From an uncultured Chromatiaceae bacterium (GTDB taxonomy: Bacteria; Pseudomonadota; Gammaproteobacteria; Tenderiales; Tenderiaceae), in contig CALZIQ010000004.1 in assembly GCA_945787735.1 (NCBI GenBank), forward strand, positions 2,075 to 66,074: a stretch of 64,000 bases of DNA. The letters are read 5' to 3'. Of the stretch, positions 11,563-29,831 are shown piece by piece. Under the pieces are notes generated by a model that worked only from the letters and a program-made list of their open reading frames with translations, ran no database searches and was not told the DNA's origin. Each line of letters opens with the position of its first letter. The first letter of the stretch is position 1. Both the position numbers and the translations under genes were made by a program.

Positions 11563-11600
11563 GAGCTAAGAAGTAAGTTAAATCACGAGCGTCAGAAGAT

Positions 11601-11632: not shown

Positions 11633-11650
11633 AGAACTGCCAGTACGGAG

Positions 11651-13948
11651 ATGACAATGGCACAAACAGCACGCGAAGCATCATTGGCTCGCCGCAAGGC
11701 ATTATCGTCAAGTGGTAAAGCCGCAATAACAGGAAAAGTTGATCGTACTCGCGCGGCATCTGCTGCTGCGGCTACAACATCGGTGCCGGCGACAAGTGCA
11801 CCTGCAGCATCAGCGTCTGCTGTAACGTACGCTGCTGCTCCTAACGCAGTTGCGCAGAGTGGCAGCAGTGCACGTAAAGCTGCATTGTCACGACGTATTG
11901 CAATGTCAAAAGGCGGCAAAAGGGCTGTAGCAAGTGCAGATAGAGTGCGCACTGGCGCTGGCCGCGCTTCAACAAACACCCCTGCAGCGGCTGAGCGCAA
12001 AGAAGGTTGTGATTGTGGGTGTGGTGAATGCGGTGGAAAGAAAAAGTCTGCTGCAGCAACAGGCGATTTGAACTTGTCATCGCTGGCCGTCCCACAAGTT
12101 ACTGTAAATGTACCGAACAAAATTGCAATGAGTCCTGCCAAAGCGGCGTCATTGTCGCGTCGTAAGGCTTTGTCTGCTAAAGGCAAGGCTGCGTTAAAAG
12201 GTGGCTCCGTGAGTGAGGCAAGTGCAGCACGTGCAGCTAATCCAAATATTAGTAGCCGTGAACTGGCTCAGGCATTGCGTCAGCAGCGCAGCGCTAAAGG
12301 CAAGACGGATAAGAAGAATACATCTGCGGTTGCGACAGGTCCTGGTCGTCATCGTAAGCCTCAAGAACCAGCGGAAGATCAGCCCTGGAAAGTTGGTGTG
12401 ACTGAAACGGCTTCTGGCCAGGCAGTTACGGGTACCATGGTAGATCGTGTCGCAGAAGTAACGGGAAATGAGGCAAGTACCTGCCGCACTGTTACAGGCA
12501 CAGAGTACATGGGGGCTGATGTTTTTCAAAGTTACTGTAAAGCTGAACCAAAAGCCGGTTTTAACCGTGTTTCTGTGACGACGACAGGTTCAGGTAATCC
12601 GGTGAGTGGCATTAGTGTTAGTCGTAGCGCCAAAGTAACTGGCAACGAGCCAGGCACATGTAAGGCGGTCACGGGAACTGAATATGTATCTTCAGAACAG
12701 GCTAATGCGTTCTGTGCGTCAAAAGCTCCAACTAAGCCGGCCAAGATTACATTGGCTGAAACGGCTAAGGGTAAAACAGTAAGCGGAAGCAACGTTGGTC
12801 GTTCAAGTAAAGTAACGGGTGATGAGCCTGGTTCTAATCGCCAACTAACTGGTACTCAGTATATGCAAGCCGGAAACGGAAATGCACCGACAAAAGTTGG
12901 AGTGAGCAAAACGCTACGCGGTGGTTCCGTTTCAGGTACACAGGTTGGCCGTAGCGACAAGGTGACAGGTGATGAGCCGGGTAGTTGCCGTAATGTTACT
13001 GGCGATGATTATGTAGGCGCAGAACAATATTCAGGTTTTTGCAAGAGTGCGCCTGCACCGACTGATCAGAAGGTAGGTGTGTCTGCCACTCTGATGGGAA
13101 AGGCTGTAACAGGTACCATGACTGATCGTGGTCGAAACGTAACGGGTAATGAAGCGGGTACCTGTAAAGCCGTTTCCGGCACGCCTTACGCCGGTTCTGC
13201 GCAGGCAGAAGCGTTTTGTTCATCGCCTGAAAAGTTTATGGCGATGGCGCGTGCACGCAAAGGTACGAGTAATGTAGGGCCGGTCGCTACGGGTCTTCAG
13301 CCGGGGATTAACGGTGTAATGACTGGCGCTGCCAAAGGTGCTTGTGAGCCTGTAACAGGCACGCCTTATATCGGTGCGGATCAGGCCGCCAATGCATGCC
13401 CAGCAACTGCGGCAACGCCAGTGAGTCCTGACTTTCCTCAGCCTATCGCAGGTCAGCCTTGGGGAGAGTTCAGTGTCGCGCCACCTTCAGGTGGTGCGTA
13501 TCAAGGTGCTCAGGTGAGCGGTATAACAGGTAGTCGCTATGAGCAAGGGCAAATTACCGGACCATTTGGGATGGCTGATGGCAAGGTAACAGGCACAGAA
13601 GAAGCGCGCTTCGGCGGGGGTGCTAAAACGGCAATGCCTGAGCCTGTTGTTGAGCCGATTGGAATGGTTGACGGCCCTGTTAAATCGCGCGTTACCGGTG
13701 AGGGTATGGCGGCTGGCCAGAAGATTACTGGCGACGATTGGGATCGTGGTGATCGAGTTACAGGTACTGAAGGTAATTCTGCGACACGTCGTAATCCCAC
13801 GCTTCGTGGTCCTACGCCTATGGCTTCAATGGCTGTGGTCAACAAGCGTAATGAAGAGGCACCTGTACCAGTAAGCAAAGTAACAGGAAGCAGTGGTAAT
13901 ACAGAGAAAGGTTCTTTGATTACTTATTCTGGTGGTGCTCGCGGTTAA
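11651..13948 (+). CDS. csoS2: Carboxysome scaffold protein CsoS2
   Basis: 765-aa low-complexity ORF. It has four basic N-terminal repeats ('RRKALSSSGKAA', 'RKAALSRRIAMSKGGKRA', 'SLSRRKALSAKGKAA', 'LRQQRSAKGK') and repeated 'VTG(N/D)E..(T/S)C..VTGT(E/Q)Y' middle repeats. Its position after cbbS also fits. The start could be the ATG at 11657. Confidence 0.9.
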   Translation: MTMAQTAREASLARRKALSSSGKAAITGKVDRTRAASAAAATTSVPATSAPAASASAVTYAAAPNAVAQSGSSARKAALSRRIAMSKGGKRAVASADRVRTGAGRASTNTPAAAERKEGCDCGCGECGGKKKSAAATGDLNLSSLAVPQVTVNVPNKIAMSPAKAASLSRRKALSAKGKAALKGGSVSEASAARAANPNISSRELAQALRQQRSAKGKTDKKNTSAVATGPGRHRKPQEPAEDQPWKVGVTETASGQAVTGTMVDRVAEVTGNEASTCRTVTGTEYMGADVFQSYCKAEPKAGFNRVSVTTTGSGNPVSGISVSRSAKVTGNEPGTCKAVTGTEYVSSEQANAFCASKAPTKPAKITLAETAKGKTVSGSNVGRSSKVTGDEPGSNRQLTGTQYMQAGNGNAPTKVGVSKTLRGGSVSGTQVGRSDKVTGDEPGSCRNVTGDDYVGAEQYSGFCKSAPAPTDQKVGVSATLMGKAVTGTMTDRGRNVTGNEAGTCKAVSGTPYAGSAQAEAFCSSPEKFMAMARARKGTSNVGPVATGLQPGINGVMTGAAKGACEPVTGTPYIGADQAANACPATAATPVSPDFPQPIAGQPWGEFSVAPPSGGAYQGAQVSGITGSRYEQGQITGPFGMADGKVTGTEEARFGGGAKTAMPEPVVEPIGMVDGPVKSRVTGEGMAAGQKITGDDWDRGDRVTGTEGNSATRRNPTLRGPTPMASMAVVNKRNEEAPVPVSKVTGSSGNTEKGSLITYSGGARG
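13096..13165 (+). other. Candidate -1 programmed ribosomal frameshift element inside csoS2
   Basis: There is an in-frame X_XXY_YYZ heptamer G_GGA_AAG at 13096-13102. After a 6-nt spacer comes a 9-bp stem, ACAGGTACC (13109-13117) paired with GGTACCTGT (13157-13165). The -1 frame reaches TGA at 13123-13125. Confidence 0.45.
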
Positions 13949-13974
13949 TAATCCCGGCATTATGTAGGTAGAAA

Positions 13975-15477
13975 ATGATTAGGCGTAGACCAACAAGTTC
14001 TTTGTCGAGAAGTAATCGAGAAAGAGCAGTTCAGCCAAAGACAGCGAATAGTAGTCGCTCATCAATGATGAGACCTCTGACTGCTGTGTCTGGCTCCGCC
14101 GATCATCCACTGGTAGATGGCTTTGAAAACAGCCATTTGTATCAATACGAGACGTCAGTCAAAAAAGCGTTTGATGCAATTGTGCCAACCTTGAAAAAGG
14201 TTTCGGCATACCAGCACGAAGAAGATTTTGTTGTACGTGTGCAAACAGTAGCCATGCAACAACTTGGGTTTGAGTTGCCAGATGAAATACTGGAAAACGC
14301 CTGGGTTGATCAATTGGACATGCGTTCATTGTTTGCTTGGTGTGTGTTCAAGACTTATCACCGTTTTTGTGATGATTTTTTTGGCAAAGCACCACTGAAC
14401 AATAAAAACGCTGAAGGGTTTCAGAGCTTTCTTCAGCAGTGTGGTTTCCACACCTTGGATGTTTCGCCCTGTGCAGACGGACGACTGGCCCATGCTATTC
14501 GTTACGTCCTAAGGCTGCCGATTGAAGCGGTTCGCCGTAAGTCTTACGCTGGCGCCATGTTTGATATTGATAACAGCATCCAGAAGTGGGTAGAAACGGA
14601 AATGCTGCGTTACAGGGAAGGCCAGCCAAATACGGCAGATGCATCGACGCGTTATCTGAAGACTGTTGCCTATCACTTCAGTTCGGTTGATCCGAGTCAT
14701 GAGGGTTGCGCGGCGCATGGCTCTGATGATGCGAAAGCGGCAGCGGAAGGTTTGAATCGTTTGTTGGCGTTTCAGCAGGCAATCGAAAACAGTTTTTGTT
14801 GTGGTGCCTCTATCGATCTGTTGTTGTTAGGTATTGATACAGACACTGACGCAATCAAGGTGCATATCCCTGATGCGAACGGCAACATTGATTTAGATAA
14901 GTTTGTTGATGCCAGAGAGGTTTATCTGCAAACACAACGCTTGTCAGCGACTGAGGGAATGCAGCGAATCGAACAGATGATTCGTAATGTGCAAGAAAGT
15001 GTTAACGAAGGGATGTTGAAGCTGATAAGCAAGCTGCTCGTTAACAACTTGTCGCAAATTGAATATGTACGTCGCTACTTTGGTAGCAACTACAAAGATA
15101 TCGGCCATGCTGAACGTTTTATCGGAGCAGGTATCGGTTTTGAAGAGGTGCAACTACGCAATCTGACATATTTTGCGTATTTGGACACTGTTGAGGAGTC
15201 AACGGCTGACTTTGATGTTGGCATTAAGATCTTCAGTAAACTGAATGTTGCAAATGGTTTGCCGGTGCCCGTTGTGATTCGGTTTGATTATCACGGCCAG
15301 GTTCCCGGGGCACGTGAAAGAGCAGTAGAACGTTGTCAGCGTGTTTCAGATGCAGTGGAGAGCAGATATGGCGAGCTTGCAGAAAAAGGTTTGTTGCACA
15401 CGCTGCTGGTAATTCGTGATTGCAATGCAAACGGCCAGATAGAGATTTTAGGTTCGTCGTTGAAAACGGCGATATAG
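13975..15477 (+). CDS. csoS3: Carboxysome shell carbonic anhydrase CsoSCA (CsoS3)
   Basis: 500-aa ORF containing 'DVSPCADGRL', 'YHFSSVDPSHEGCAAHGSDD' and 'CCGASIDLLLLGIDTDTDAI', which match remembered CsoSCA motifs. Confidence 0.9.
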   Translation: MIRRRPTSSLSRSNRERAVQPKTANSSRSSMMRPLTAVSGSADHPLVDGFENSHLYQYETSVKKAFDAIVPTLKKVSAYQHEEDFVVRVQTVAMQQLGFELPDEILENAWVDQLDMRSLFAWCVFKTYHRFCDDFFGKAPLNNKNAEGFQSFLQQCGFHTLDVSPCADGRLAHAIRYVLRLPIEAVRRKSYAGAMFDIDNSIQKWVETEMLRYREGQPNTADASTRYLKTVAYHFSSVDPSHEGCAAHGSDDAKAAAEGLNRLLAFQQAIENSFCCGASIDLLLLGIDTDTDAIKVHIPDANGNIDLDKFVDAREVYLQTQRLSATEGMQRIEQMIRNVQESVNEGMLKLISKLLVNNLSQIEYVRRYFGSNYKDIGHAERFIGAGIGFEEVQLRNLTYFAYLDTVEESTADFDVGIKIFSKLNVANGLPVPVVIRFDYHGQVPGARERAVERCQRVSDAVESRYGELAEKGLLHTLLVIRDCNANGQIEILGSSLKTAI

Positions 15478-15492
15478 CGCGGAGATGACCAG

Positions 15493-15738
15493 GTGAAAAT
15501 CGTTCAGGTAGAAAAACCTTTGGTGTCGACCAACCGCATTCCGGAAATGGAGCACAAGCATTTGCAAGTCGTGCGTGATGGTTCTTCGTTAGCCGTGGCC
15601 GTTGACGCCGTAGGTGCTAAACCTGGAGATTGGGTGATTTGTGTTGGTAGTTCGGCCGCGCGTGAAGCTGCAGGGAGTAAAGGGTATCCGAGTGACCTGA
15701 CCATCGTGGGCATAATTGACCACTGGGAAGAAGAATAG
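15493..15738 (+). CDS. csoS4A: Carboxysome vertex (pentamer) protein CsoS4A, EutN/CcmL family
   Basis: 81-aa ORF with a GTG start after 'ggaga', beginning 'MKIVQVEKPLVSTNRIPEM'. Confidence 0.85.
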   Translation: MKIVQVEKPLVSTNRIPEMEHKHLQVVRDGSSLAVAVDAVGAKPGDWVICVGSSAAREAAGSKGYPSDLTIVGIIDHWEEE

Positions 15739-15748
15739 GCTGTCAGCC

Positions 15749-16006
15749 GTGGATATCTACCAGGCAGAAAAGACATTGGTTTGTACTAGCCGTATACCCG
15801 GCTTAAAACAAGCTCCTTTGCGTATCTTACGTAGCAGAAGCGGCAGTAAAGTGGTAGCAACCGATCCGGTTGGTGTAAGAGAAGGTAATTGGGTTTTTAC
15901 CTCAAGTGGCTCGGCAGCACGTTTTGCACAAGGCGACTTTGAAGTACTGACTGATTTAACGATTGCAGGAATTATTGATAACTGGCAAGAAGACGCCAGT
16001 CAATAA
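15749..16006 (+). CDS. csoS4B: Carboxysome vertex protein CsoS4B, EutN/CcmL family
   Basis: I chose the in-frame GTG at 15749, 11 nt after the csoS4A stop. The track start at 15716 would overlap csoS4A. Contains 'TLVCTSRIPGL...GSAARF'. Confidence 0.8.
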   Translation: MDIYQAEKTLVCTSRIPGLKQAPLRILRSRSGSKVVATDPVGVREGNWVFTSSGSAARFAQGDFEVLTDLTIAGIIDNWQEDASQ

Positions 16007-16055
16007 ATTTAAAGACAGTAATTTTAATTTAACTGAGATATCAGGAGACAAACAA

Positions 16056-16355
16056 ATGGCTAGTGAAAACTACGGTATTGCCTTGGGTATGATCGAAACT
16101 CGTGGCTTAGTGCCAGCAATTGAAGCAGCAGATGCGATGACCAAAGCAGCTGAAGTTCGTCTGATTGGTCGTGAGTTTGTTGGTGGTGGTTATGTCACTG
16201 TTTTGGTTCGTGGCGAAACAGGCGCAGTAAACGCAGCCGTTCGTGCGGGTGCTGACGCTTGTGAACGTGTTGGTGACGGCCTTGTGGCTGCGCACATCAT
16301 TGCACGCCCTCATAAAGAAGTTGAGCCAGTATTACCAACTGGTGGCGCTGCTTAA
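16056..16355 (+). CDS. csoS1: Carboxysome hexameric shell protein CsoS1 (BMC-H), copy 1
   Basis: ATG at 16056 after 'aggaga'. Contains '[31 protein letters not shown]'. The track start at 15963 is an extension. Confidence 0.95.
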   Translation: MASENYGIALGMIETRGLVPAIEAADAMTKAAEVRLIGREFVGGGYVTVLVRGETGAVNAAVRAGADACERVGDGLVAAHIIARPHKEVEPVLPTGGAA

Positions 16356-16409
16356 TTTAAGCACATTATTTTTTAAACGAGACATTAGATACTCTAGAGG
16401 AGAGCGAAG

Positions 16410-16700
16410 ATGGCCAATGATAATTACGGTATTGCTCTGGGCATGATTGAAACACGTGGTTTAGTGCCAGCAATAGAAGCAGCAGATGCAATGACTAAAG
16501 CAGCTGAAGTTCGTCTGGTTGGACGTGAGTTTGTTGGTGGCGGTTACGTTACCGTTCTGGTTCGTGGTGAAACAGGTGCAGTGAACGCAGCCGTTCGTGC
16601 CGGTGCTGATGCCTGCGAGCGTGTCGGTGACGGCCTTGTGGCTGCACACATCATCGCCCGCCCACATAATGAAGTTGAGAATGTATTAGGCAAGAAGTAG
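16410..16700 (+). CDS. csoS1: Carboxysome hexameric shell protein CsoS1 (BMC-H), copy 2
   Basis: 96-aa ORF whose core is almost identical in protein sequence to copies 1 and 3. Confidence 0.95.
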
Positions 16701-16758
16701 CATATGCTACAAATTTTACAATCCAAACAAGCCATTTTTCATAAAGGAGCATAAGGCC

Positions 16759-17055
16759 ATGGCAAATGAAACATACGGTATTGCATTGGGTATGATTGAA
16801 ACCCGCGGTTTGGTACCGGCTATTGAAGCGGCGGATGCGATGACAAAAGCAGCGGAAGTGCGCCTTGTAGGTCGCGAATTTGTTGGCGGTGGTTATGTCA
16901 CTGTGCTCGTTCGTGGCGAAACAGGTGCTGTGAATGCGGCTGTTCGTGCCGGTGCCGACGCGTGTGAGCGTGTGGGTGACGGACTTGTAGCTGCACACAT
17001 CATTGCTCGCCCACACAAGGAAGTTGAGCAAGTACTGGGTGGTGCTCAGGCCTAA
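16759..17055 (+). CDS. csoS1: Carboxysome hexameric shell protein CsoS1 (BMC-H), copy 3
   Basis: 98-aa ORF with the same core sequence and a distinct C-terminal tail. Confidence 0.95.
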
Positions 17056-17145
17056 TATTGAGATGAGTGCATTGCGGGGAGCTGTTTTTTTACATGCTCC
17101 CAGCCATGTCTCTCGTACATACCTGGTTCTCATAGAGCAGCGTTA

Positions 17146-17598
17146 ATGATGCAGGATCCTACGGTACTTGGATATCTTGGTCGGGCTTTAAGCCTCGAAA
17201 TGTCAGCTGTGCAGCAATATCTGGCGTTAGCGAGGCTGTTGGAAGTTCGTGGCATGACCAAAGCGGGTGAAAAATTCCGTCATGAAGCACAGGAAGAAAT
17301 GGAGCATGCGGAACGGATCATGGGGCGGATGTTGGCGCTCGGGGTGGCCCCCGGCTCAAGTCAGCTCAGGCCGGTGCGTCTCGATGGTTCTTTGCCACAA
17401 CTGATGCAACATGTGAGTCAGTTAGAGCATCAAGCTGTGAGTTTTTATGCTCAGGCGGTGAGTCATTGCGAGCGGTCACAGGATCCTGAAAACAGGATGT
17501 TTTTCGCAACGCTGCTGCAAGAAGAGCAACAGCATGCCTCTGACATGGATGCCTGGCGGCAGCAAATTGAGACCGGAATGACGGTCGAATTGGGTTAG
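17146..17598 (+). CDS. Bacterioferritin/ferritin-like di-iron domain protein, carboxysome-operon associated
   Basis: 150-aa ORF with two ExxH motifs ('EEMEHAERI', 'QEEQQHASD'). It sits directly after csoS1, as in other cso loci. Confidence 0.7.
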   Translation: MMQDPTVLGYLGRALSLEMSAVQQYLALARLLEVRGMTKAGEKFRHEAQEEMEHAERIMGRMLALGVAPGSSQLRPVRLDGSLPQLMQHVSQLEHQAVSFYAQAVSHCERSQDPENRMFFATLLQEEQQHASDMDAWRQQIETGMTVELG

Positions 17599-17612
17599 AC
17601 GAGGGCCACACC

Positions 17613-17891
17613 ATGATTGATAACTGGGTCATACGTAAACGTCCGGCACGCTTGGAACGCCGCTTTGAATTCTCTGACTATGAAGAAACGCGTGAGTTTT
17701 TAGATCGTGCTGCCGAACTGGCCGAGCGGGAGGATTACTACCCAGATATGAGTTTTGGCCGCACCCATGTCAGTATGACACTGAATCCTCGAGAGGAAGG
17801 TGGTGAAGTGGACGAGGCATTGATGGAATATGCCCGTATGGTGGATGCCTTGTTGCCAAGCTCCCGGCTTAGCGATCAGTCTGCTGGGTAA
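17613..17891 (+). CDS. Pterin-4a-carbinolamine-dehydratase-like protein (acRAF-type RubisCO assembly factor candidate)
   Basis: 92-aa ORF with PCD-fold-like 'DYYPDMSFGRTHVSMTL', in which YY replaces the catalytic HH of true PCDs. Its operon context also fits. Confidence 0.7.
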   Translation: MIDNWVIRKRPARLERRFEFSDYEETREFLDRAAELAEREDYYPDMSFGRTHVSMTLNPREEGGEVDEALMEYARMVDALLPSSRLSDQSAG

Positions 17892-17908
17892 CATTGAGAG
17901 GAAACAAA

Positions 17909-18157
17909 ATGACTACCAACAGCAATCAGAATAAATCTAGCAATGAGAAGCCAGAAGCGAAATCAGCTGGGGTGGACAAGAACGTTGCTTCTACTGAAAA
18001 GCCAGATGTGACAGAGACTGCAGCGAGTTCTTCAACTGCTGCTAAGTCGGCACAAAAAACAGCTAAAACGCCGAGAAAAAAACAGGCACCACGTCGAAGT
18101 CAAAGCAAAGCTGAAGAATCTACGTTATTTTCTTCGCGTCGGGTATGGCCTGACTAA
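17909..18157 (+). CDS. Small disordered K/S/T/A/E-rich protein ending in RVWPD; McdB-like candidate
   Basis: ATG at 17909 follows 'gagagg'. The 82-aa product has almost no aromatic residues except the terminal W. It shares 'STEKP' and the C-terminal 'RVWPD' with the ORF at 23087-23242. Confidence 0.45.
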   Translation: MTTNSNQNKSSNEKPEAKSAGVDKNVASTEKPDVTETAASSSTAAKSAQKTAKTPRKKQAPRRSQSKAEESTLFSSRRVWPD

Positions 18158-18173
18158 GTCGGTGACATTTCCT

Positions 18174-18195
18174 GTGCTGCTTGATCATGCAGCAC
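18174..18195 (+). other. 7-bp stem-loop just after the McdB-like ORF
   Basis: GTGCTGC ttgatcat GCAGCAC, with no U-tract. It may be an operon boundary or a processing site. Confidence 0.3.
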
Positions 18196-18305
18196 TCACA
18201 AAATATTGCGTTTGCATAATGGTAATTGGCTGTAGTCACGGGAGAGCTGCGATCGTATAGACGCAGTTTAGCCATTAAGCGATAAGCGAACGGAGATCTA
18301 GAAAA

Positions 18306-19328
18306 GTGAGTATATCTAATCTTCTGGTCCCGGCAGTGCTGTTTTTTGCGCTGGGGTTTCTGGCCAGGGTGATAAAGTCGGATTTGCGTTTTCCACCCGA
18401 TCTGGCTAAAGCGCTATCAATCTACCTTTTAATGGCCATAGGCCTGCATGGTGGCTATGAGTTGGCGAAGGCAGACATGGTGACTGCCCTTAACTCCATC
18501 ATGTGGGCGCTGATTCTAGGCTTCACTTTACCGATTCTGGGTTACTTAATACTGGCGGTGACGCGCAAGGTTAATCCGTTGGATGCGGCGGCTATTTCCG
18601 CCCATTACGGTTCGGTCAGCGCCGGCACCTTCCTGACGGCGATCGCCTATCTGGATAATATCGGCGTTCAATACGAGACATATCCGCTGATCATGCTGGC
18701 TGTGATGGAGTCGCCGGCGATCATTGTCGGTCTGTTGCTTGCTGCCAAGGCGCGTCAAACTCTGGCTGCTCAGGAGGCGGCATCATCTCAAGGTGGAGCG
18801 GTAAGTTCACCGGATGAAGGTGGTGATAGTGGTAATAACTTTGGCGAATTGCTGCGTGATGCCTTTACCAATGGCAGCGTAGTGGTGCTCATCGGTTCCA
18901 TGATCATCGGTGCCATATCGGCACCTTCCGGTATGGAAAAGCTCTACCCCTTCGTCAACGATATTTTTATGGGTATATTGTGCTTGTTCTTGTTTGATAT
19001 GGGCATGGTGGCCGCAAAGCGTATTGGTGACTTTCGTAAGATCGGCATTGTGTTGGCGTTATTTGGGGTAGTGATGCCGGTGCTAGGTGGTCTAATCGGT
19101 GCGTATGTAGGCCACAGCATTCTCGGTTTCAGTGTTGGCGGTGCAACATTGGTAGCGATTCTCGGCGCCAGTGCCTCTTACATTGCGGTACCACCGGCAA
19201 TGCGCTTGGCAGTGCCTGAAGCGAATCCTTCGTTTTACCTAACGCTGTCTCTTGGTATCACCTTTCCATTCAATGTAATTGTTGGGATACCGTTGTATCA
19301 TAGTGTAGCGCAGGCATTGGCTGGATGA
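18306..19328 (+). CDS. sbtA: SbtA-like (DUF897) sodium-dependent bicarbonate transporter family permease
   Basis: 340-aa polytopic ORF with a GTG start. The N-terminus 'VLFFALGFLARVIKSDLRFPPDLAKALSIYLLMAIGLHGG' resembles SbtA-family proteins. It is followed by a PII-like gene. Confidence 0.75.
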   Translation: MSISNLLVPAVLFFALGFLARVIKSDLRFPPDLAKALSIYLLMAIGLHGGYELAKADMVTALNSIMWALILGFTLPILGYLILAVTRKVNPLDAAAISAHYGSVSAGTFLTAIAYLDNIGVQYETYPLIMLAVMESPAIIVGLLLAAKARQTLAAQEAASSQGGAVSSPDEGGDSGNNFGELLRDAFTNGSVVVLIGSMIIGAISAPSGMEKLYPFVNDIFMGILCLFLFDMGMVAAKRIGDFRKIGIVLALFGVVMPVLGGLIGAYVGHSILGFSVGGATLVAILGASASYIAVPPAMRLAVPEANPSFYLTLSLGITFPFNVIVGIPLYHSVAQALAG

Positions 19329-19715: not shown

Positions 19716-20768
19716 ATGACAAACAGCGACAATTCTCGGTTCAATGGCGGCCTACCGGACTATCTGGTTCGTCATACAACCTTTAGACAGATGCAAATCT
19801 TCGAGGCAGTTGTACGCTTGCAGAGTTTTACCCGGGCCGCCGAAGAGTTGTTTCTGACGCAGCCGACGGTGTCGACCCAGCTAAAAAAATTGACCGACGC
19901 AATGGGACTGCCACTGTTGGATCAGGCAGGTCGCAAGCTCAAGCCAACTGAAGCGGGTGAGGAGCTTTATCGGGCGATCCACCGCATTTTCGATTCACTG
20001 TCCGATCTAGATACTCGCATTTCAGGGCTCAAGGGATTGCGCCGAGGTCGCTTGCGTCTGGGGGTGATCACCACAGCTAAATACTTTGCGCCAGAGATCC
20101 TTGGTGGGTTTTGTCGCGACTATCCGGGTGTGGATGTATCGCTTATGGTGACTAATCGGGAGCATATCATCGAACGAATTCAGAATAATGAAGATGATAT
20201 TTACATTCTTGGGCGGCCACCTGAAAAGGAACTCAACCTCAAATGCTATCCATTTGCTCCTAATCCTTTGGTTGTGCTGGCGGCACCTGATCACCCATTG
20301 TGCCGCGAGTCAAATATCTCCCTTGAGCGACTGGCCGAGGAGCCGCTGATCTCGCGAGAGGCGGGTTCGGGTATTCGAGATACCACCATGCGGCTGTTTG
20401 CCGAGCGCGGGTTGACTCCACAGGTGCGTATGGAATTGGGTAGCAACGAGGCTATCAAACACGCGGTATTGGGTGGTCTGGGTGTGGCGGTAATGTCATT
20501 GCATGCGCTGGTTTTAGAAGGTGCGGATGGGCCTGTGGCTGTATTGGATGTAGAGGGATTCCCAATTGATCGCCAATGGTATTTAGCCTCTCACCAGGAA
20601 AAACAACTATCGCTCATCGCTACCACTTTTCTAGAGTTCGCCAAGGCCCACGGGCCGATTATTTCTGAGCGTATGGATACCCTCTTAGCGGCATTCAAGT
20701 GGCGCCAAAAAGCGAGGAATGCCACAAGTGAAAGCGCAGAATCGGTAGTCAAAGTAGAGCTTAAATGA
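19716..20768 (+). CDS. cbbR: LysR-family transcriptional regulator (CbbR-like by context)
   Basis: 350-aa ORF with HTH '[37 protein letters not shown]'. It is embedded in the CCM locus. Confidence 0.8.
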
Positions 20769-21391
20769 TTAGTTTACGCGCATATGTATTTATCGATTCG
20801 CTGCAGCCCCAGCTGGCCACCTATATGGGAACGGTATCCCAGGGGTTTCTGCCGGTGCCCGGTGATTCCTGTCTGTGGATGGAAGTTTCTCCCGGTATGG
20901 CCATTCATCGACTCACCGATGTTGCGCTCAAGGCAACTCGTGTCCATTTAGGTGCGCAGGTGGTAGAGCGGGCCTTTGGCTCCATGGTATTTCACCACCG
21001 GGATCAGAGTGATGTGATCGAAGCGGGTCATGCAGTGCTTAATGTGCTCCGTACCGATGAGGATGCCCGTCAGAAATGCCGTATTGCCTGGAGCGAGACG
21101 GTCCGTGCCATCACGCCAGACCATGCAGTCTTGATCAACCGTCAGGACCGTAAAGGCTCCATGATCTTGCCGGGTCAGAGTATGTTTATACTTGAGACTG
21201 AGCCGGCAGGTTATATCGTCTATGCCGCCAACGAGGCGGAAAAGGCTGCTAATATCACCTTGGTGGATGCCCGGGCAGTTGGGGCCTTCGGTCGACTGAC
21301 GCTTGCCGGCAAAGAGGCTGACATCGATGCTGCAGCCCATGCTGCCAGACATGCGGTGCAAAGCCTTTCAGGGATCGATCCTAGTCAATGA
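20765..21391 (+). CDS. csoS1D: Tandem-BMC-domain shell protein CsoS1D (pseudohexamer/BMC-T)
   Basis: 208-aa ORF containing '[40 protein letters not shown]' and '[29 protein letters not shown]...[10 protein letters not shown]'. Its ATG overlaps the cbbR stop (ATGA). Confidence 0.8.
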
Positions 21392-22133: not shown

Positions 22134-22451
22134 GGTGTGCGATCTCAGATCAGCCGGTTATTCTACTATTTCAAAGTGTACACAATAGTGGGGGGGACTG
22201 CATTGGAATCATCAATGGCTACTATTGCTAAATATGAATAGTGCGCTAACTATCAATGCAGCAGCCAAATCAGTTGGGCTCTAGCGTTGAGTCTGTCTGT
22301 GCGGGCCTCAGTCCTGAAAGCTTGTAATTTTTGTACACTACAATGTCCTCGCTACTAAGTGGAGGAGAAGGCAAGCCAAATCGCTGCAGGTTTGCTTTGT
22401 ACGACGATTTTTGATTATATTCATTCGAATGACTTAAACGGGATCAATGGC

Positions 22452-23087
22452 ATGTCGGCACTGGTATTTGCGGTATCAAACCAAAAGGGTGGTACAGGCA
22501 AGACGACTCTGAGTATGAATCTGGCTGCCGGTCTGGCAAAAAGAGGGCGAACGCTGGTGATCGATGCGGATCCGCAAGGTTCAGCTGGGCAATGGGCGGG
22601 TCTAGCGCCAGATGAGCGGCCATTTCCATTGTCGGTGATTTCCGTGGCCGGTAACCTGGCGCGAGAGGTTAACCATTTTCGCCAGAATTATCAGTACATC
22701 GTAATAGATTGTCCGCCGACGCTGGAAACGGACACAACCAGACAGGCGATGCTGGCATCGGATATCGTTTTGATTCCGGTGCAGCCATCCCCCATCGACT
22801 TATGGGCCAGTGTTAGCTTGTCGAATACCATAGAGAAGATCAGGCAGGACAAACCAGAAATTCAGGCCTTCATCGTGGTCAATCAAGCCGAACCGCGTAA
22901 CGCGCTTTCACGCGCCATGCATCAGGCGTTGTTGGAATTTTCTATCCCTGCACTCAGCAACGTGTTGCGTCGCCGTGCAATTTATCGCAACTCAGCTATA
23001 CAAGGTGCTAGTGTATTCTGCATCGGCAAGCGTGGTGAGCCGGCCGCGGCAGAGGTTAACTCAATCATTGAGGAGTTATTGCAATAA
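22452..23087 (+). CDS. mcdA: ParA/MinD-family ATPase, McdA-like (carboxysome positioning) by context
   Basis: Deviant Walker A 'SNQKGGTGKTT', 'VIDADPQGS' and 'YIVIDCPP'. The ATG at 22452 gives a typical ParA N-terminus. An in-frame GTG at 22359 is the alternative start. Confidence 0.7.
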   Translation: MSALVFAVSNQKGGTGKTTLSMNLAAGLAKRGRTLVIDADPQGSAGQWAGLAPDERPFPLSVISVAGNLAREVNHFRQNYQYIVIDCPPTLETDTTRQAMLASDIVLIPVQPSPIDLWASVSLSNTIEKIRQDKPEIQAFIVVNQAEPRNALSRAMHQALLEFSIPALSNVLRRRAIYRNSAIQGASVFCIGKRGEPAAAEVNSIIEELLQ

Positions 23088-23242: not shown

Positions 23243-23744
23243 TATTTTGGATTAGCCAGCAATGGTTATAATTGTGCGTCCAGGGCTAGCGCATAAAAAA
23301 TATAAAAATAAATAAAGGGTCAATTATCAATTTTGACAGCTTGCTCCCCGTATTTATTTATAATTGAGGGCGTAGGGCGTTTAGAATAATTATACATTAG
23401 AAGAAAATGTCCCGTGCTTAGTTGTAACGAATCTCTTTTAAGCTGCACGTTGTACTGCCTGCCGTATTAGATTCGTATTAACCGTAATTTTGTGGTTCGG
23501 AGGGGGCAGCACAGTAATCGCGATGGCCATCATGGCGGTGGCCTTATATGATGGATAGGGACGATCCTTACAACAGGTTTGTCTGTGTACACGGGTTGAT
23601 CTTATTCTGCAATAAAGTGGCGTTGGACAATGTAATGATAGTTCCTGATAACAATTATTCAGGCTGATTCTATATTCATATATAAGATCAAATAGGCCGT
23701 AATCGATGGTTCAGTTGGCTTAGACATGATCAAATAAGGTAATT

Positions 23745-23764
23745 AATTTTCGAATACGAAAATT
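23745..23764. promoter_or_regulatory. Perfect 8-bp inverted repeat AATTTTCG-aata-CGAAAATT in the dabB upstream region
   Basis: Read directly from the sequence, about 185 nt upstream of the dabB ATG. It is an operator or hairpin candidate only. Confidence 0.2.
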
Positions 23765-23949
23765 TTACGATTTGATGAAGATGAACAGAGTGTAAAGAGA
23801 ACAAATTATGGAATATCTGAATATCAGTAATCAGGTGTTTCTCTAAGCCAAGATAAAACTACAGTCTTCACGCCAGAGACAATAATAGAGCTTGGTATTG
23901 GACATAATGCACTTTTGGTACCTTTTTTAAATGGAGATAGTTCGGCTTT

Positions 23950-25629
23950 ATGGAGCAACTAATCGTTTTACTGCCGGCATTACCGCTTTTCTCAGCCCTT
24001 TTTATTCATGTTTTATCCAGTCAGCTTGGTCGTCGGGTAGCTGATCTAAGCGTTGCGACAGCAGTTTTGGCGTTTATAGTAGCTGCTGTGCTACTGGGGC
24101 TAGCGCTAAAAGGCAATGATGCAAGCCAGGTAGCTATTGGTGGCACATGGGGTGTCTTGCTTGCCGATCCATTAAGCACATTGATGGGAGTGCTTATAGC
24201 CGGTATCAGTCTTATCGTACGCATATACTCAGTGCGATATATGGTAGAGGAGAAGGGTTACGGCCGCTTCTTTATGTTGCTAGATCTGATGACCGCGACA
24301 CTTTTAATCATGGTGGCGGCCGGTGATTTGCTAACTCTGCTAGTGGCCTGGCACTTGATTGGTGTATTGCTTTACTTCTTGCTCGGTTTCGATACGCGCA
24401 GCCAGACTGCAAGCCGCTACGCTTTTTGGACCTTGATAACCTATCGCATCGGCGATTTGGCCTTGGTGTTGGCTGCCGGGCTGTTGTTTCACGCCTATGG
24501 CACTTGGACGTTATCAGAAATCTTTGCACAAATCACAGAAAACCCTGGTGCACATAACTATTTCGGTTTCGCGTTGGAAGAGCTTGTCGGAACACTGCTG
24601 GCCTTCGCTGCCTTTGCGCGCTCTGCGCAATTTTTTCTCCATACCTGGTTGCCTTACACCATGGATGGTCCCACGCCTGTGTCGGCATTGATGCATGCGG
24701 GCATTGTGAATGCAGGTGGTTTTCTGATTAATCGTTTTGCGCCGGTATTTGTTCAAACAGACAGCGTGTTGCACTTATTGTTTGTTGTGGGTTTGGTGAC
24801 CGCGATCATTGGTTCCGTTTTGATGCTGACGCAAAACGATATCAAAAAGGCGCTTGGCTATTCCACCATGGGGCAGATGGGTTTCATGATTATGGAATGC
24901 GGTGTTGGTGCATTCTCACTGGCTATTTACCACTTAATTGCACACGGTCTGTTCAAAGGAACATTGTTCCTTGGTGCGGGCGCCGTCATCAATGAAGCGC
25001 GCGCACATGATGGGGTGCCTAAAGATGATCTATACACCTTTGTTGTAGAGCGACGACCGGCCAAAGTCCGCCAGCCTTGGTTGGTTATGGCGGGGATGAC
25101 ACTGGCCGTGCCGATCATTATTTTGTTTATCGCGCATTGGCTTGTGGCCCAGAATTATTTTCAGCAGCAGGGTGCTATCGTGTTGCTCTTCTTTGGTTGG
25201 GTAACTGGCGCGCAATTGTTATTCACCGCCTACCGTATGGATACACAAAATGTCTGGCGCCTGGTGGGTACGGTGGTTTTTTCATTCGCCGTGATTGTGT
25301 TGGGCTATGCTCTGATCAGCCACGCATTTGATCTATTTTTATACTCAGATCCGGAATTCCGTAGCCAAATTTATGTTGCCGCTGGCATTGACGTATTCTG
25401 GTTCGATGTCCTGGTTGTGCTCACCACCGTAGTCATCGTGGCCGGTTGGGTACTGACCTATTACTCTGAACAAAATGTACTGATCAGTCAAAAGAAAATA
25501 GGCCAAATTTGGTTGGGTTTTTATGCGTTAGTCTCTAGAGAGTTTTACATAATAGATATTTACGCATGGTTGACTCGCACACTGCTAAATGCAGCCGCGC
25601 GACTAAACGTTTTATTGAGGTGGCGCTAA
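23950..25629 (+). CDS. dabB: DabB: NuoL/ND5/MnhA-like proton-conducting membrane subunit of a DAB-type inorganic-carbon pump
   Basis: 559-aa polytopic ORF with 'WLPYTMDGPTPVSALMHAGIVNAGGFL' and 'HLIAHGLFKGTLFLGAGAV'. It lies upstream of a DUF2309 gene. Confidence 0.85.
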   Translation: MEQLIVLLPALPLFSALFIHVLSSQLGRRVADLSVATAVLAFIVAAVLLGLALKGNDASQVAIGGTWGVLLADPLSTLMGVLIAGISLIVRIYSVRYMVEEKGYGRFFMLLDLMTATLLIMVAAGDLLTLLVAWHLIGVLLYFLLGFDTRSQTASRYAFWTLITYRIGDLALVLAAGLLFHAYGTWTLSEIFAQITENPGAHNYFGFALEELVGTLLAFAAFARSAQFFLHTWLPYTMDGPTPVSALMHAGIVNAGGFLINRFAPVFVQTDSVLHLLFVVGLVTAIIGSVLMLTQNDIKKALGYSTMGQMGFMIMECGVGAFSLAIYHLIAHGLFKGTLFLGAGAVINEARAHDGVPKDDLYTFVVERRPAKVRQPWLVMAGMTLAVPIIILFIAHWLVAQNYFQQQGAIVLLFFGWVTGAQLLFTAYRMDTQNVWRLVGTVVFSFAVIVLGYALISHAFDLFLYSDPEFRSQIYVAAGIDVFWFDVLVVLTTVVIVAGWVLTYYSEQNVLISQKKIGQIWLGFYALVSREFYIIDIYAWLTRTLLNAAARLNVLLRWR

Positions 25630-25630
25630 C

Positions 25631-26389
25631 ATGTCAGAAGTGATGCTGCTGTTCGCGGGTTTATTTTTACCGCTGTTCCCGCTAAGTATGGTTTTCAACG
25701 AAATATTTGAGCGCCTACGCGCGCCCAAGTTGCGTATTGCATTATTGATGATATGGCCGCAGTTTGGCCTGATCATCGCACACAGTGCAGGTATCGAAAT
25801 GCCAGATTGGATCATAGTCTGGGCGCTGTTTACCGCAATGCTTTATGGTTTTAGAGTCCTGGCATTGCGTGAAGTAGGTCTATGGACCAGTTTTATGGCC
25901 ACATCAACCTGGGCAGTTTTGTGGCTTACATTGGATAGTAATGCTGGGCTGACCCAGTCGATCTTTTATGCCTTTGGATTTAGCGTGCCACTGGCAATGC
26001 TAGTGCTAATCAGTGGAGAGCTGGAAGAACGATTTGGAGCAGCATACACAGAATTATACGGTGGCCTGGCACTGACGCTGCCTCGTTTGAGCGGCGTGCT
26101 GGTATTTGTGGTATTAGCCATTATTGCCACGCCGTTGTTTCCTGGGTTCGCTGTTATGGTGGTCTCAATTGTTGGCTCCACCGCAAGTTCAATGGCGACT
26201 GCTATGACAGTGGCTGGCATATGGCTGCTGTGGGGTTGGGCGGGGGCCCGCTTACTGCAAGGTTTGATCATCGGGCCAGCCCACGAAGAGACGACCACGG
26301 ACCTCAGTGCCGCGACGGCATGGTTCTATGCGGCAATCTTAGGCCTGTTAGTCATCAGTGGAACATATTCAATAGGTGGCTTGTCATGA
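25631..26389 (+). CDS. Truncated, degenerate Proton_antipo_M (NuoM/N/ND4)-like membrane protein; possible extra DAB subunit
   Basis: 252-aa hydrophobic ORF. 'GLFLPLFPLSMVF' aligns by eye with NuoM 'KMPVVPLHGWL', and 'ERFGAAYTELYGGLALTLPRLSGVLVFVVLAIIATPLFPGF' fits the antiporter C-terminal pattern. It starts 1 nt after the dabB stop, and its stop overlaps the dabA ATG. Confidence 0.55.
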   Translation: MSEVMLLFAGLFLPLFPLSMVFNEIFERLRAPKLRIALLMIWPQFGLIIAHSAGIEMPDWIIVWALFTAMLYGFRVLALREVGLWTSFMATSTWAVLWLTLDSNAGLTQSIFYAFGFSVPLAMLVLISGELEERFGAAYTELYGGLALTLPRLSGVLVFVVLAIIATPLFPGFAVMVVSIVGSTASSMATAMTVAGIWLLWGWAGARLLQGLIIGPAHEETTTDLSAATAWFYAAILGLLVISGTYSIGGLS

Positions 26390-29300
26390 GTCTTGCTTTG
26401 GGTGAAAAATTAAAAATACGTTCCATGATTTATGTGGCGGCAGAGCCCGTGCCGTTTTTTTGGCCTATGCGGTCTTTTATTCATCACAACCCATTGCACG
26501 GCCTGGAACACCTGCCTTTCGATGAGGCGGTGAAGAAGGGGGCTAAGATATTTCATGGGCGTAGTTTTCTGCCTCGCCGTATTTATCAAAACTACCTGGC
26601 ACAAGGCAAGGTTGATCGGGCAAAACTCGAATCTATTGTTGCCTCTTTTGTGAATTCACGCCCAAGTATTCCGGGTGTAGATTTGCAGCGTTTGCTTATG
26701 AGTATGCTCACAGAATGCGAAACTCCGGTGATGCTTGCAAGCGATTTTGCCGATGCCAACGATGTTCAAGCCGCCTTGTCAGGTGCAGCGCTCTCAGATC
26801 TTACTAGGCTCACACCTGACTTTCTCGTTGAACGATTGCGTGAACAGTTGTTGGGTGACCGGCCGATTTATGAATCAGTTGATGCGCTTTACGGCACGGG
26901 GATCGGTGCTGATCTAGATGAGCTGGTCATAAAAAGTTGTCTCGACTTTTTTGATGAAGGCCAGTCAGTTTGGTCTATGCCAAAACGCAAGCGTGGCTTT
27001 TTTGCTGCCTGGAGCGAAGTTGCACGTAGAAACGTAAGATTATTCCTGCGTGGACTTCATATCAATGAAATACTCGCTGTTGATGATAGTCCTGAAGGTA
27101 TTATCAGTTATGTTATGAAAGTTTTGGGAATACCGGAGCAATACTGGACCAGTTATTTTACCCGTGAGCTCTCTCGTTTGCATGGTTGGGCAGGATTTAT
27201 CCGTTGGCGTTCAAATTCACAGCATTATTATTGGAGTAAAAAGTACCCCGGCGACCTTGTCGATTTCATGGCGATTCGAATGACACTTGCCCTGGCATTG
27301 TTACAAGAGCGCGGAAAGCACCAAATTGCATACACCAACAGTACGATTAATTCAGTCATTGAAACGCAAACAGAGGCAATCTATCTGGGCCATGAGTTCC
27401 ACAGTAGAGAGATTCTGCCTGCAATGGCTCATAAAGTAGAGATGGCGTTGTCGAGCAAATCTGAGCAACACCTTACGCAAATATTCCATGAATACATCCA
27501 GAAGAAACGCGTGCATGAAGCAACGCGTCAGGCTCAACGTCTGCACGACCTGGCGCAACGTGTTGGCAAGCTCAAAGAAGTGGAGCAGCTGTCAAGTGAG
27601 GATTTTTTGCAGTTGTTGGCATCTCTACGTGAATTTGAAAAACGTGAAGGCATGTGTTGGCTGCATGGCATGGAAGAACATGCCATGCAGCGTTTAATCA
27701 AGGATATAAAGCTTACCCCGCCAATAGAACGGGAAAAACGTCCCTTTGTGCAGATGCTGTTTTGCATTGATACACGTTCAGAGCGTATTCGACGCAATTT
27801 GGAGAGTGTTGGTGATTACCAGACCTTTGGTATTGCAGGTTTCTTTGGTGTGCCGGTGAGTTTCATGGAGCTGGGTAAAGGTAGCGAAAGTCATCTTTGC
27901 CCCGTCATACTTACCCCCAAAAACCTGGTGTTGGAAGTCAGCACCTCAGGCCAGACAGAAGACGCTGCTGCGTTGACTGCGTTGGAAAAGGCTTTGCATG
28001 AACTGAAAGAGTCGGTTTTGACGCCTTTCGTCACAGTAGAAGCAATCGGGCTATTGTTCGGCCTCGATATGATAGGTAAAACCATTGCGCCCAAAAGCTA
28101 CAATAATTGGCGCAAACGATTTAGTCATACTAAACCACCAACATTGTTGTTAATCGATAAGTTGAGTCGTGAGCAAGCAGACTCCGTGGTGCGTACAGTC
28201 CAACGTGCAGTCATCATAAAAGCGGTGGAACAGGAGCTCGAATTTAAGCCTGAAAATATTACCGATGACATTATTCGTGGATTACGCGAGTGCGCCCTTG
28301 GCAATTCTAAAGAATACGCCGGGCTTGCTGAGTCGCTAGGCATTGAACAGTCTCGTACCGAAGTGCTTGTGCAACGCTTACGTGATGCTTACCGAATCAA
28401 TAAGTCATTTGCCCAGGTACAAATGGAACAGCTTGGTCGCATCGGTTTTACACTGGATGAGCAAACTAACTTTGTCGCTCAGGCGCTTAGCGCCATTGGC
28501 CTGACCAAAGGCTTTTCTCGTTTTATATTAATCGTCGGCCATGGCAGTAGCTCGGAAAACAATCCCTATGAATCCGCGCTTGATTGCGGTGCGTGTGGTG
28601 GTAATCACGGTCTTGTGAGTGCTAAAGTTATCGCCCAAATGGCGAACAAGCCCGAAGTGCGCTCACGTCTGCGAAGAAAGGGTATCGATATTCCCGATGA
28701 TGCCTATTTCATGCCTGCACTGCACAATACAACCACAGATGAGATACAGATGTTTGATCTCGACCAAATGCCGCCTTCACATCTGTTCTATCTCGATCGT
28801 CTGCGTAATGGTCTAACGTCTGCATCACACTTATGCGCCCAGGAACGTTTGCCCAGCTTACAGCCTCAAGCGGCTTCTACTGATGCTACAAAAGCCTTTC
28901 TTGAGGCGCGGCGAAACTCGCTGGATTGGTCCCAGGTGCGGCCTGAATGGGGCTTGTCGCGCAACGCCTATTTTATTATCGGGCGCCGCGACTTGACCGA
29001 GCAATCGGCGCTGGATGGCCGGGCTTTTCTTCACTCATACGACTACCGGGTCGACCCAAAACGTCGTCTATTAGAAAATATTATCACCGGTCCACTGGTC
29101 GTTGGTCAGTGGATTAATATGGAGCATTATTTTTCCGCTGTAGACAACGAATGCTTCGGCAGCGGCAGTAAGGCATACCATAATGTTGCTGGCCGTTTTG
29201 GCGTCATGACCGGTAACCTGAGCGATCTGCGAACTGGTTTACCATCACAGACCGTGCTTGATCAGGGCCTGCCTTATCATGAGCCAATTCGACTCATAAC

Positions 29301-29508
29301 TGTCGTAGAGGCACCTTTTGAACATGCTAAAAGCGCAATAGAGTCTGTTGTTACAGTCAAGTATTTGGTACGAAATGGCTGGATTCGATTAATGGTGGTA
29401 GATCCGGAAACAGCAAAAATTTACACATATGAAGATGATGCATGGCACAGTCGTCCGCATGCAGACATCTGTGAAAGCGAATTACCTAAGGAGTCTTGCG
29501 TATCATGA
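26386..29508 (+). CDS. dabA: DabA: DUF2309-family protein, beta-carbonic-anhydrase-like cytoplasmic subunit of the DAB pump
   Basis: 1040 aa from the ATG at 26386. Contains 'FIHHNPLHGLEHLPF', 'FCIDTRSERIRR', 'GHGSSSENNPYESALDCGACGGNHG', 'VRPEWGLSRNAYFIIG' and 'HNVAGRFGVMTGNLSDLRTGLPSQTV'. The track start at 26221 overlaps the previous gene by 169 nt. Confidence 0.9.
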   Translation: MSLALGEKLKIRSMIYVAAEPVPFFWPMRSFIHHNPLHGLEHLPFDEAVKKGAKIFHGRSFLPRRIYQNYLAQGKVDRAKLESIVASFVNSRPSIPGVDLQRLLMSMLTECETPVMLASDFADANDVQAALSGAALSDLTRLTPDFLVERLREQLLGDRPIYESVDALYGTGIGADLDELVIKSCLDFFDEGQSVWSMPKRKRGFFAAWSEVARRNVRLFLRGLHINEILAVDDSPEGIISYVMKVLGIPEQYWTSYFTRELSRLHGWAGFIRWRSNSQHYYWSKKYPGDLVDFMAIRMTLALALLQERGKHQIAYTNSTINSVIETQTEAIYLGHEFHSREILPAMAHKVEMALSSKSEQHLTQIFHEYIQKKRVHEATRQAQRLHDLAQRVGKLKEVEQLSSEDFLQLLASLREFEKREGMCWLHGMEEHAMQRLIKDIKLTPPIEREKRPFVQMLFCIDTRSERIRRNLESVGDYQTFGIAGFFGVPVSFMELGKGSESHLCPVILTPKNLVLEVSTSGQTEDAAALTALEKALHELKESVLTPFVTVEAIGLLFGLDMIGKTIAPKSYNNWRKRFSHTKPPTLLLIDKLSREQADSVVRTVQRAVIIKAVEQELEFKPENITDDIIRGLRECALGNSKEYAGLAESLGIEQSRTEVLVQRLRDAYRINKSFAQVQMEQLGRIGFTLDEQTNFVAQALSAIGLTKGFSRFILIVGHGSSSENNPYESALDCGACGGNHGLVSAKVIAQMANKPEVRSRLRRKGIDIPDDAYFMPALHNTTTDEIQMFDLDQMPPSHLFYLDRLRNGLTSASHLCAQERLPSLQPQAASTDATKAFLEARRNSLDWSQVRPEWGLSRNAYFIIGRRDLTEQSALDGRAFLHSYDYRVDPKRRLLENIITGPLVVGQWINMEHYFSAVDNECFGSGSKAYHNVAGRFGVMTGNLSDLRTGLPSQTVLDQGLPYHEPIRLITVVEAPFEHAKSAIESVVTVKYLVRNGWIRLMVVDPETAKIYTYEDDAWHSRPHADICESELPKESCVS

Positions 29509-29831
29509 AAAACCTGAACTTAAGTCTGCTCAAGAAAGTTGAAATAATCCTGGAAGGTGAACACAAAAGATTTGTCACTGATCTGCTGGATCGTGCAGGT
29601 GTTACAGGTTACACGATTGTCAATAACCTCTCAGGTAAGGGTGGTCACGGTTTTCATGAAGGGCACCTTATGTTTAATGAGGATGACGTGTTAATCATGA
29701 TTATCGCAGCCGTTCCTGAAGATCTTGTTGATCCAATCTTAGAGGGGCTGGCGCCCTTCTTCAGCGAACACTCAGGTGTTGTCTTTCTGTCGGACATACA
29801 AGTGACGCGAATGGTGAAATTTCGTGTATAA
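29505..29831 (+). CDS. PII-like protein (carboxysome-associated CPII-like) coupled to dabA
   Basis: 108 aa from the ATG at 29505, which overlaps the dabA TGA (ATGA). 'GVTGYTIVNNLSGKGGHGFH' parallels the SbtB-like paralog. Confidence 0.65.
   Translation: MKNLNLSLLKKVEIILEGEHKRFVTDLLDRAGVTGYTIVNNLSGKGGHGFHEGHLMFNEDDVLIMIIAAVPEDLVDPILEGLAPFFSEHSGVVFLSDIQVTRMVKFRV

Follow-up and report, generated by a model that had tools for sequence, protein, structure and literature searches.

An ORF between dabB and dabA of an uncultured gammaproteobacterium very probably encodes DabC, the third membrane subunit of a DAB1-type CO2-hydrating complex

Desmarais et al. 2018 (10.1101/476713) reported that 'DAB1 is a cluster of 3 genes', in which a half-length protein is encoded between DabA1 and DabB1; the figure legend ascribed to the half-length gene 'distant homology to DabA1'. 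In H. neapolitanus, DabB1 and DabA1 are 559 aa and 1046 aa long, respectively, and DAB1 is located downstream of the alpha-carboxysome operon (10.1101/476713). The gene hneap_0908 has been cited as the third subunit in a 2026 Nature Communications paper. The T. albus DAB1 was resolved at 2.1 A by cryo-EM as a DabA-DabB-DabC heterotrimer (Phillips, Oltrogge, Remis, Savage 2026 preprint, 10.64898/2026.05.01.722082), and the name DabC comes from this preprint; elsewhere in the literature 'DabC' also denotes unrelated genes, for instance of domoic acid and monobactam pathways. The T. albus DabC has a half-NuoM fold adjoining DabB; its former proton-path residues are hydrophobic, and the water chain is absent. 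Moreover, deletion of dabC abolished the rescue of carbonic-anhydrase-free E. coli by the H. neapolitanus and T. albus systems, and the authors proposed 'a structural or allosteric role' for DabC (10.64898/2026.05.01.722082). Table S6 of the same preprint gives 'DabC present: yes' for the loci of N. mobilis Nb-231 (DabA A4BLJ5, DabB A4BLJ3) and Thiohalophilus thiocyanatoxydans, and lists the DabC state of Aquificales as 'fused'.

DAB2/MpsAB (H. neapolitanus DabA2B2, PDB 9rd0) shares with these systems the DabA PF10070 plus DabB PF00361 core and the proposed function. However, DabC is absent from it, and DabA2, at 827 aa versus about 1040, is shorter by about 200 residues. The original prediction for the DNA studied here took DAB systems to be usually two-component, which is right for the DAB2-type but not for DAB1, known as a 3-gene cluster since 2018 (10.1101/476713).

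The window, that is, the whole stretch of 64,000 nucleotides that was analysed, contains an ORF of 252 aa between dabB and dabA. It is called dabC below, because its product is very probably DabC, a membrane protein that would serve as the third and non-catalytic subunit in an energy-coupled CO2-hydrating complex of the DAB1 type (three-subunit DAC). The features of the locus are as follows.

23950 to 25629, plus strand: dabB (DabB1-type), 559 aa, NuoL-like proton-conducting membrane subunit
25631 to 26389, plus strand: dabC, 252 aa, ATG start, predicted 8-TM protein corresponding to TM7-TM14 of NuoM/MrpD
25658 to 25687, plus strand: dabC residues 10-19, GLFLPLFPLS, predicted break in the first (TM7-like) helix
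26027 to 26149, plus strand: dabC residues 133-173, ERFGAAYTELYGGL...PRLSG...ATPLFPGF, the signature from the end of TM11 to the broken TM12, common to NuoM
26386 to 29508, plus strand: dabA (DabA1-type), 1040 aa, cytoplasmic beta-carbonic-anhydrase-like subunit
29505 to 29831, plus strand: P-II family gene (Pfam P-II, E 1e-22)

The dabB stop codon TAA occupies positions 25627-25629 and is followed by a single base, 25630, and the dabC ATG. The dabC stop codon TGA (26387-26389) overlaps the dabA ATG at 26386 as ATGA, so the ORF lies exactly where it had been placed, 1 nt after the dabB stop and overlapping the dabA start. A further ATGA joins the dabA stop to the P-II ATG at 29505, which suggests that the dabA-P-II gene pair is translationally coupled. 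The 1-nt gap and the ATGA overlaps together suggest that dabB, dabC, dabA and the P-II gene are all translationally coupled. The mechanical ORF call gave dabA 1095 aa and a start at 26221, which falls within dabC in a different frame. A start at 26386 is favoured by the Pfam DabA match, which begins at residue 17, and by the homologs, which align from residue 1.

The two flanking proteins were assigned as follows. DabA matched Pfam PF10070 over residues 17-1000 (E 2e-253) and the PDB chain of DabA2, 9rd0_A, at E 1.7e-95. DabB matched Pfam Proton_antipo_N and Proton_antipo_M (PF00361) at E 1e-50 and the NCBIfam NuoL model at E 3.5e-81, and it has retained the TM8 His (PTPVSALMH) as well as the HxxxHxxxK motif of TM11. 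Its length of 559 aa equals that of the H. neapolitanus DabB1, and the DabA of the window, at 1040 aa, compares with 1046 aa for DabA1. Two further features of DabB were observed. At the NuoL TM7 Lys position it carries Arg224 ('RSAQFFLHTWLP'), and Arg is found there in 74 of 75 related loci; around residue 134, 'WH' stands in place of the canonical TM5 'WE' with its Glu.

The window DabC was compared with the DAB1 DabC proteins of T. albus, H. neapolitanus (Hneap_0908) and N. mobilis (A4BLJ4). As in those systems, dabC adjoins dabB and dabA, the operon is of the DabA1 type and includes a P-II gene, and carboxysome genes lie upstream. The H. neapolitanus numbering, 0907 (A), 0908 (C) and 0909 (B), makes DabC the middle gene there as in the window. 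The protein is likewise of about 250 aa, without a Pfam domain, with a half-NuoM fold (here in a predicted model) and with hydrophobic proton-path positions. The window locus differs in its host, which is an uncultured gammaproteobacterium. The middle gene of N. mobilis, A4BLJ4 (NB231_15218, locus L009), is 58% identical to the window DabC, and that of T. thiocyanatoxydans, A0A4R8IPL3 (locus L062), is 53% identical; each lies between the DabB and DabA entries listed in Table S6. In the text of the T. albus synthetic gene, which is OCR-corrupted with many indels, there was one match to the motif 'xPLFPIS', at HMM positions 10-28. Each published DabC property that can be computed was reproduced for the window protein. 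The dabC ORF is an ordinary member of an already described family and is not new. By analogy with the T. albus and H. neapolitanus homologs, for which both properties are published, the window protein would belong to a heterotrimer and would be needed for inorganic-carbon uptake.

The fused state also has its counterpart among the sequences collected here. A Nitrospiraceae protein of 871 aa (P0240) begins with a complete DabB part and continues with a DabC part, corresponding to the 'fused' entry of Table S6. DabC is fused to DabB in Aquificales and some Nitrospiraceae, whereas it is a separate ORF in the window. The DabC family also includes, at E 4e-14, a stand-alone member from Aquificota (P0208/P0299). 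In another member of 380 aa (P0239), additional N-terminal helices precede the DabC-like part.

Immediately upstream of the DAB1 genes the window carries an alpha-carboxysome gene set (9766-19328 region). The main features from this set to dabB are listed below.

9766 to 11178: RuBisCO large subunit, alpha-carboxysome set
11651 to 13948: CsoS2, alpha-carboxysome set
13975 to 15477: CsoSCA, alpha-carboxysome set
17146 to 17598: ferritin-like gene, after the carboxysome genes
18306 to 19328: SbtA-like bicarbonate transporter, after the ferritin-like gene
19716 to 20768: LysR-family regulator, with a 4-nt overlap with the BMC-domain gene
20765 to 21391: 208-aa protein with a C-terminal BMC domain, overlapped by the LysR gene
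22359 to 23087: ParA-like ATPase, with an ATGA overlap with the next ORF
to 23242: 51-aa low-complexity ORF ending ...RVWPD, following the ParA-like gene with the ATGA overlap

A single carboxysome locus is thereby flanked by two different inorganic-carbon uptake systems, one SbtA-like and one DAB1. Many related loci contain close homologs of the BMC protein within a few kb of the dab genes, and both the side and the strand vary. The ParA-like ATPase and the 51-aa ORF are reminiscent of the McdA/McdB carboxysome-positioning pair, to which they may correspond. In the approximately 700 bp 5' of dabB (23243-23949) there is no plus-strand ORF of at least 60 aa, and this segment is presumably the promoter/regulatory region of the dabBCA-P-II operon. 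An Rfam scan of the whole window at the gathering threshold returned no match.

To which protein family DabC belongs was examined with profiles, sequences and structures. No Pfam family was matched by DabC at E<=1, and the gathering score of Proton_antipo_M was thus not reached. The NCBIfam NuoM and MrpD models matched weakly and with their C-terminal halves only (best E 4e-9): positions 267-467 of the 486 of TIGR01972 align with DabC residues 52-246, and the NuoM score was 35.6 bits against a cut-off of 550. When the PDB sequences were searched, the only significant match was residues 312-492 of the Mycobacterium NuoM 8e9g_M, at E 4.5e-4 with the single sequence and E 6.7e-5 with a 25-sequence profile. 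An AlphaFold2 model of DabC from the 25-sequence alignment (pLDDT 82, pTM 0.84) contains 8 transmembrane helices, two of which are broken (residues 2-12/19-28 and 146-165/171-183). Foldseek with this model gave 48 PDB matches at E<=1e-3. At the top of the list were only ND4, NuoM, NdhD and MrpD, whose TM-scores were 0.80-0.85 by query length and about 0.43 by target length; L-type subunits (NuoL, ND5, MrpA) appeared only far lower. Since the score is high over the query and only about half as high over the target, the whole of DabC superposes on half an M-type subunit. The fourteen-TM layout with inverted five-helix repeats (TM4-8, TM9-13) was not found in DabC, which has 8 TM helices only, and there is no room for further helices because dabB ends 1 nt upstream.

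The possibility that DabC is a duplicated half of DabB was also considered. The DabC alignment profile showed no similarity to the DabB of the window (probability 0.3%), and this candidate was dropped. As modelled, DabC is a half-size M/D-type antiporter-like subunit that comprises TM7 to TM14 and is no copy of DabB.

DabC has several features in common with NuoM/ND4/NdhD/MrpD (PF00361): the TM7-TM14 fold with two discontinuous helices, the signature from the end of TM11 to TM12 (E-R-x9-GGL...P...P-G-x-x-F), and a gene that follows a NuoL/MrpA-like gene, with side-by-side L-type packing in the published DAB1 structure. However, DabC is without TM1-TM6 and hence without the N-terminal half-channel and the TM5 Glu; it falls below the Pfam threshold; its equivalents of K234, H241, K265, H322, H348 and E407 are uncharged; and it lies outside any redox or antiporter complex. 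The structural matches of DabC included NdhD3 (6tjv_D). NDH-1MS and NDH-1MS' (NdhD3/NdhF3/CupA and NdhD4/NdhF4/CupB) resemble DAB1 in placing a vectorial CO2-hydrating protein on an adjacent pair of L-type and M-type subunits. Unlike DabC, NdhD3 is of full length with intact charged residues, and its module belongs to a redox-driven complex. In DAB1 the M-type partner would be halved and proton-dead, and the energy would come from the proton motive force through DabB alone.

To map the proton-path residues, four NuoM/NdhD references were used (E. coli NuoM, P. denitrificans Nqo13, M. smegmatis NuoM and T. elongatus NdhD3). The reference numbering was taken from HMMER alignments to PDB chains, and the family and the 4 references were aligned with MAFFT. 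The E. coli NuoM fragment reproduced the known positions E144, K234, K265, H322, H348 and E407. The equivalents in the 83-sequence alignment are given below.

E. coli NuoM K234: DabC F12
E. coli NuoM H241: DabC S19
E. coli NuoM K265: DabC Q44 (this column is alignment-sensitive)
E. coli NuoM H322: DabC T93
E. coli NuoM H348: DabC F117
E. coli NuoM E407: DabC M176 (just after the 133-173 signature)

The K265 position was assigned to R28, via a 15-residue gap, in a 29-sequence alignment and to Q44 in the 83-sequence alignment; helix counting in the DabC model points to W42-Q44. None of 79 diverse DabC-family members, among them Aquificota proteins and the C-terminal portions of DabB-DabC fusions, carried Lys, Arg, Asp or Glu at any of the six proton-path columns. 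According to the alignment, every membrane-embedded ionisable proton-path residue is replaced in DabC by a hydrophobic or small polar one. At the H241 position, Ser is found in stand-alone DabC in 67 of the 79 members, and His is kept in fused DabB-DabC proteins of Nitrospiraceae MAGs (P0240 and P0242; 'PLVPFH', 'LFPLH').

Other positions of the M-type fold are well conserved. Among the 79 diverse members, conservation of P14 and P17 is 90% or more, and the model breaks the helix around them, at residues 13-18. The pattern ERFG..YGGL..P...P..GF is kept at DabC residues 133-173, as seen with HMMER against 8e9g_M and with MAFFT, and within it F135, G136, A137, A138, Y139, Y143, G145, P151, R152, P168, P171 and F173 are invariant in 25 sequences. 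A charged class is conserved at R28, R35, R75, R80, E81, R134, R152, R207 and D224, and all of these positions lie at helix ends in the model. NuoM has a periplasmic N-terminus, and its odd-numbered helices run towards the cytoplasm. With this topology, the conserved charged helix ends of DabC would be cytoplasmic, on the side where DabA sits. These residues may thus serve as a docking platform for DabA, although the positive-inside rule alone predicts the same pattern.

It is known from complex I that NuoM TM12 couples electrostatically to NuoL TM5. By analogy, DabC could be an active or regulatory half-channel that forms part of a proton or ion path at the DabB interface, and the best conserved part of DabC is indeed the TM12-like broken helix with the flanking ERFG..YGGL..P..PGF. 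Position 44 is often Gln, His is found at the K265 and E407 equivalents in 2 of the 79 members each, and the fused DabB-DabC forms have His at the H241 equivalent. Nevertheless, we consider such a half-channel very unlikely. The count of Lys, Arg, Asp and Glu at the six canonical positions is 0/79, the conserved charged residues are all at helix ends, DabC is without a water chain in the cryo-EM preprint, and DAB2 complexes work without such a subunit.

The same replacement of residues could also be read in terms of gas passage, with the hydrophobic former channel of DabC, or the DabB interface, acting as a CO2 conduit from the membrane or periplasm to DabA. The polar path residues have been systematically exchanged for hydrophobic ones while the channel-forming broken helices are kept, and there is a precedent in NDH-1/CupA, since a hydrophobic CO2 channel has been proposed through NdhF3 of the cyanobacterial NDH-1MS (introduction of the preprint, 10.64898/2026.05.01.722082). 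However, in the preprint the CO2 and water entry channels of DabA open to the cytosol in state A, and DabC is assigned no channel. Furthermore, DAB2 takes up CO2 without DabC, and the bulky Phe, Leu and Met side chains could just as well plug a cavity as form its walls. A conduit of this kind must be regarded as extremely unlikely.

Conservation of DabC was then assessed in sequence collections and in genomes. At E<=1e-3, 693 DabC homologs were found in a collection clustered at 90% identity, and the best 120 of the 693 were 246-259 aa long; the length in the family is 242-265 aa. An exhaustive search of 1.84 billion representatives gave 149 clusters at 50% identity. In 25 DabC sequences, down to 50% identity, 47 columns are invariant. 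Compared with an 89%-identical relative (L081), dabC had a dN/dS of 0.14; the values were 0.10 in dabA and 0.05 in the C-terminal part of dabB. The dabC gene is under purifying selection and shows no decay.

A scan of one genome per species yielded 80 loci, mostly from gammaproteobacterial sulfur and nitrite oxidisers; the hosts include Nitrococcus mobilis, Thiohalophilus, Thermithiobacillus tepidarius, Imhoffiella, Candidatus Thiodiazotropha and many MAGs. The order dabB, dabC, dabA, P-II was found in every one of the 80 loci where the contig reaches far enough. The gap between dabB and dabC was 1 nt in 55 of 79 loci, and ATGA overlaps joined dabC to dabA in 71 of 78 loci and dabA to the P-II gene in 58 of 73 measurable loci. 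The length of dabC was 246-261 aa in 75 of 79 measurable loci. Some loci were odd. In L077 and L079 (about 6000-7000), an ORF of 334-336 aa takes the place of dabC and the dabA matches were truncated, and the dabA match was without its N-terminal part in L014, L032 and L034. These five loci may represent assembly errors, masked stretches or real rearrangements.

That dabC is a non-functional remnant, or a frameshift-split C-terminal piece of dabB with no role of its own, might be read from its being half an antiporter subunit without a Pfam match, from its start 1 nt past the dabB stop and from its fusion to dabB in some lineages, but the chance of this is negligible in view of the dN/dS of 0.14, the steady length, the 47 invariant columns, a DabB that is already full length (559 aa, as DabB1), closest folds that are M/D-type and not L-type with no DabC-DabB profile similarity, and the published essentiality of homologs. 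The conservation and selection data refute a dead remnant. For DabC essentiality, the 2026 preprint probably relies on Schmid et al. 2021, as its reference 23.

The original prediction had described the ORF as a truncated, catalytically degenerate NuoM/ND4-like subunit, and on this the fold search, residue mapping, synteny and dN/dS agree. Its estimate of roughly 8 TM helices coincides with the AlphaFold2 model. The alignment by eye to the TM7-onward half only is borne out by the C-terminal halves of the NCBIfam models, residues 312-492 of 8e9g_M and the half-target TM-score. The replacement of Lys and His that it saw in the 'K-MPxxPLH-WLP' helix is found as F12 at K234 and S19 at H241, and the C-terminal ERFG/YGGL/P/GF pattern that it reported as retained is located at residues 133-173. 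It had also proposed a structure search and a survey of dab loci; the former recovered the antiporter-like fold of ND4/NuoM/NdhD/MrpD at the TM-score of 0.80-0.85 over the query, and the latter the order dabB, ORF, dabA, P-II in the 80 loci wherever the contig is long enough. As for its suggestion of a remnant kept for assembly or for a structural or regulatory role, the fold, the residues and the synteny favour the role, whereas a remnant in the sense of decay is contradicted by the dN/dS of 0.14.

For DabC as a non-catalytic third subunit, the following origin and mechanism can be proposed. DabC would derive from a NuoM/MrpD-type antiporter subunit after the loss of TM1-TM6. The ancestral pair may have been nuoL-nuoM or mrpA-mrpD-like, with the 5' half of the M-type gene deleted, and the nuoL-nuoM gene order would persist as dabB-dabC. 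The TM7-TM14 fold, both broken helices included, appears to have been retained. Judging from the structure of the T. albus homolog, DabC itself would not conduct protons and would pack on DabB where NuoM packs on NuoL, probably shielding a lateral face of DabB from the surrounding lipid. DabB and DabC could together form a membrane platform and docking site for the large DabA1-type carbonic-anhydrase subunit. Proton flow via DabB alone would then drive the conformational cycle of DabA, leading to one-directional CO2 hydration, and coupled translation of dabB, dabC, dabA and the P-II gene may provide near-stoichiometric synthesis.

The retained broken helices and the hydrophobic lining of the former proton path make it conceivable that DabC goes beyond a passive scaffold, either as a gas conduit, alone or at the DabB interface, or as an allosteric clamp specific to the larger DabA1. 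We regard this as unlikely. If it were true, it would explain why DAB1 needs DabC whereas DAB2 does without it.

Many chemolithoautotrophs take up CO2 mainly by means of DAB complexes, which are also candidates for engineering CO2-concentrating mechanisms in crops and industrial microbes. The window adds one more dabC ortholog and leaves the published picture unchanged. Two results are modestly useful: the charged proton-path residues are lost universally among about 80 diverse family members, fused forms included, and both sequence and predicted fold point to a NuoM/MrpD-type origin and argue against a duplication of DabB. A DAB1-type locus needs three genes, not two, which matters for annotation and for heterologous expression.
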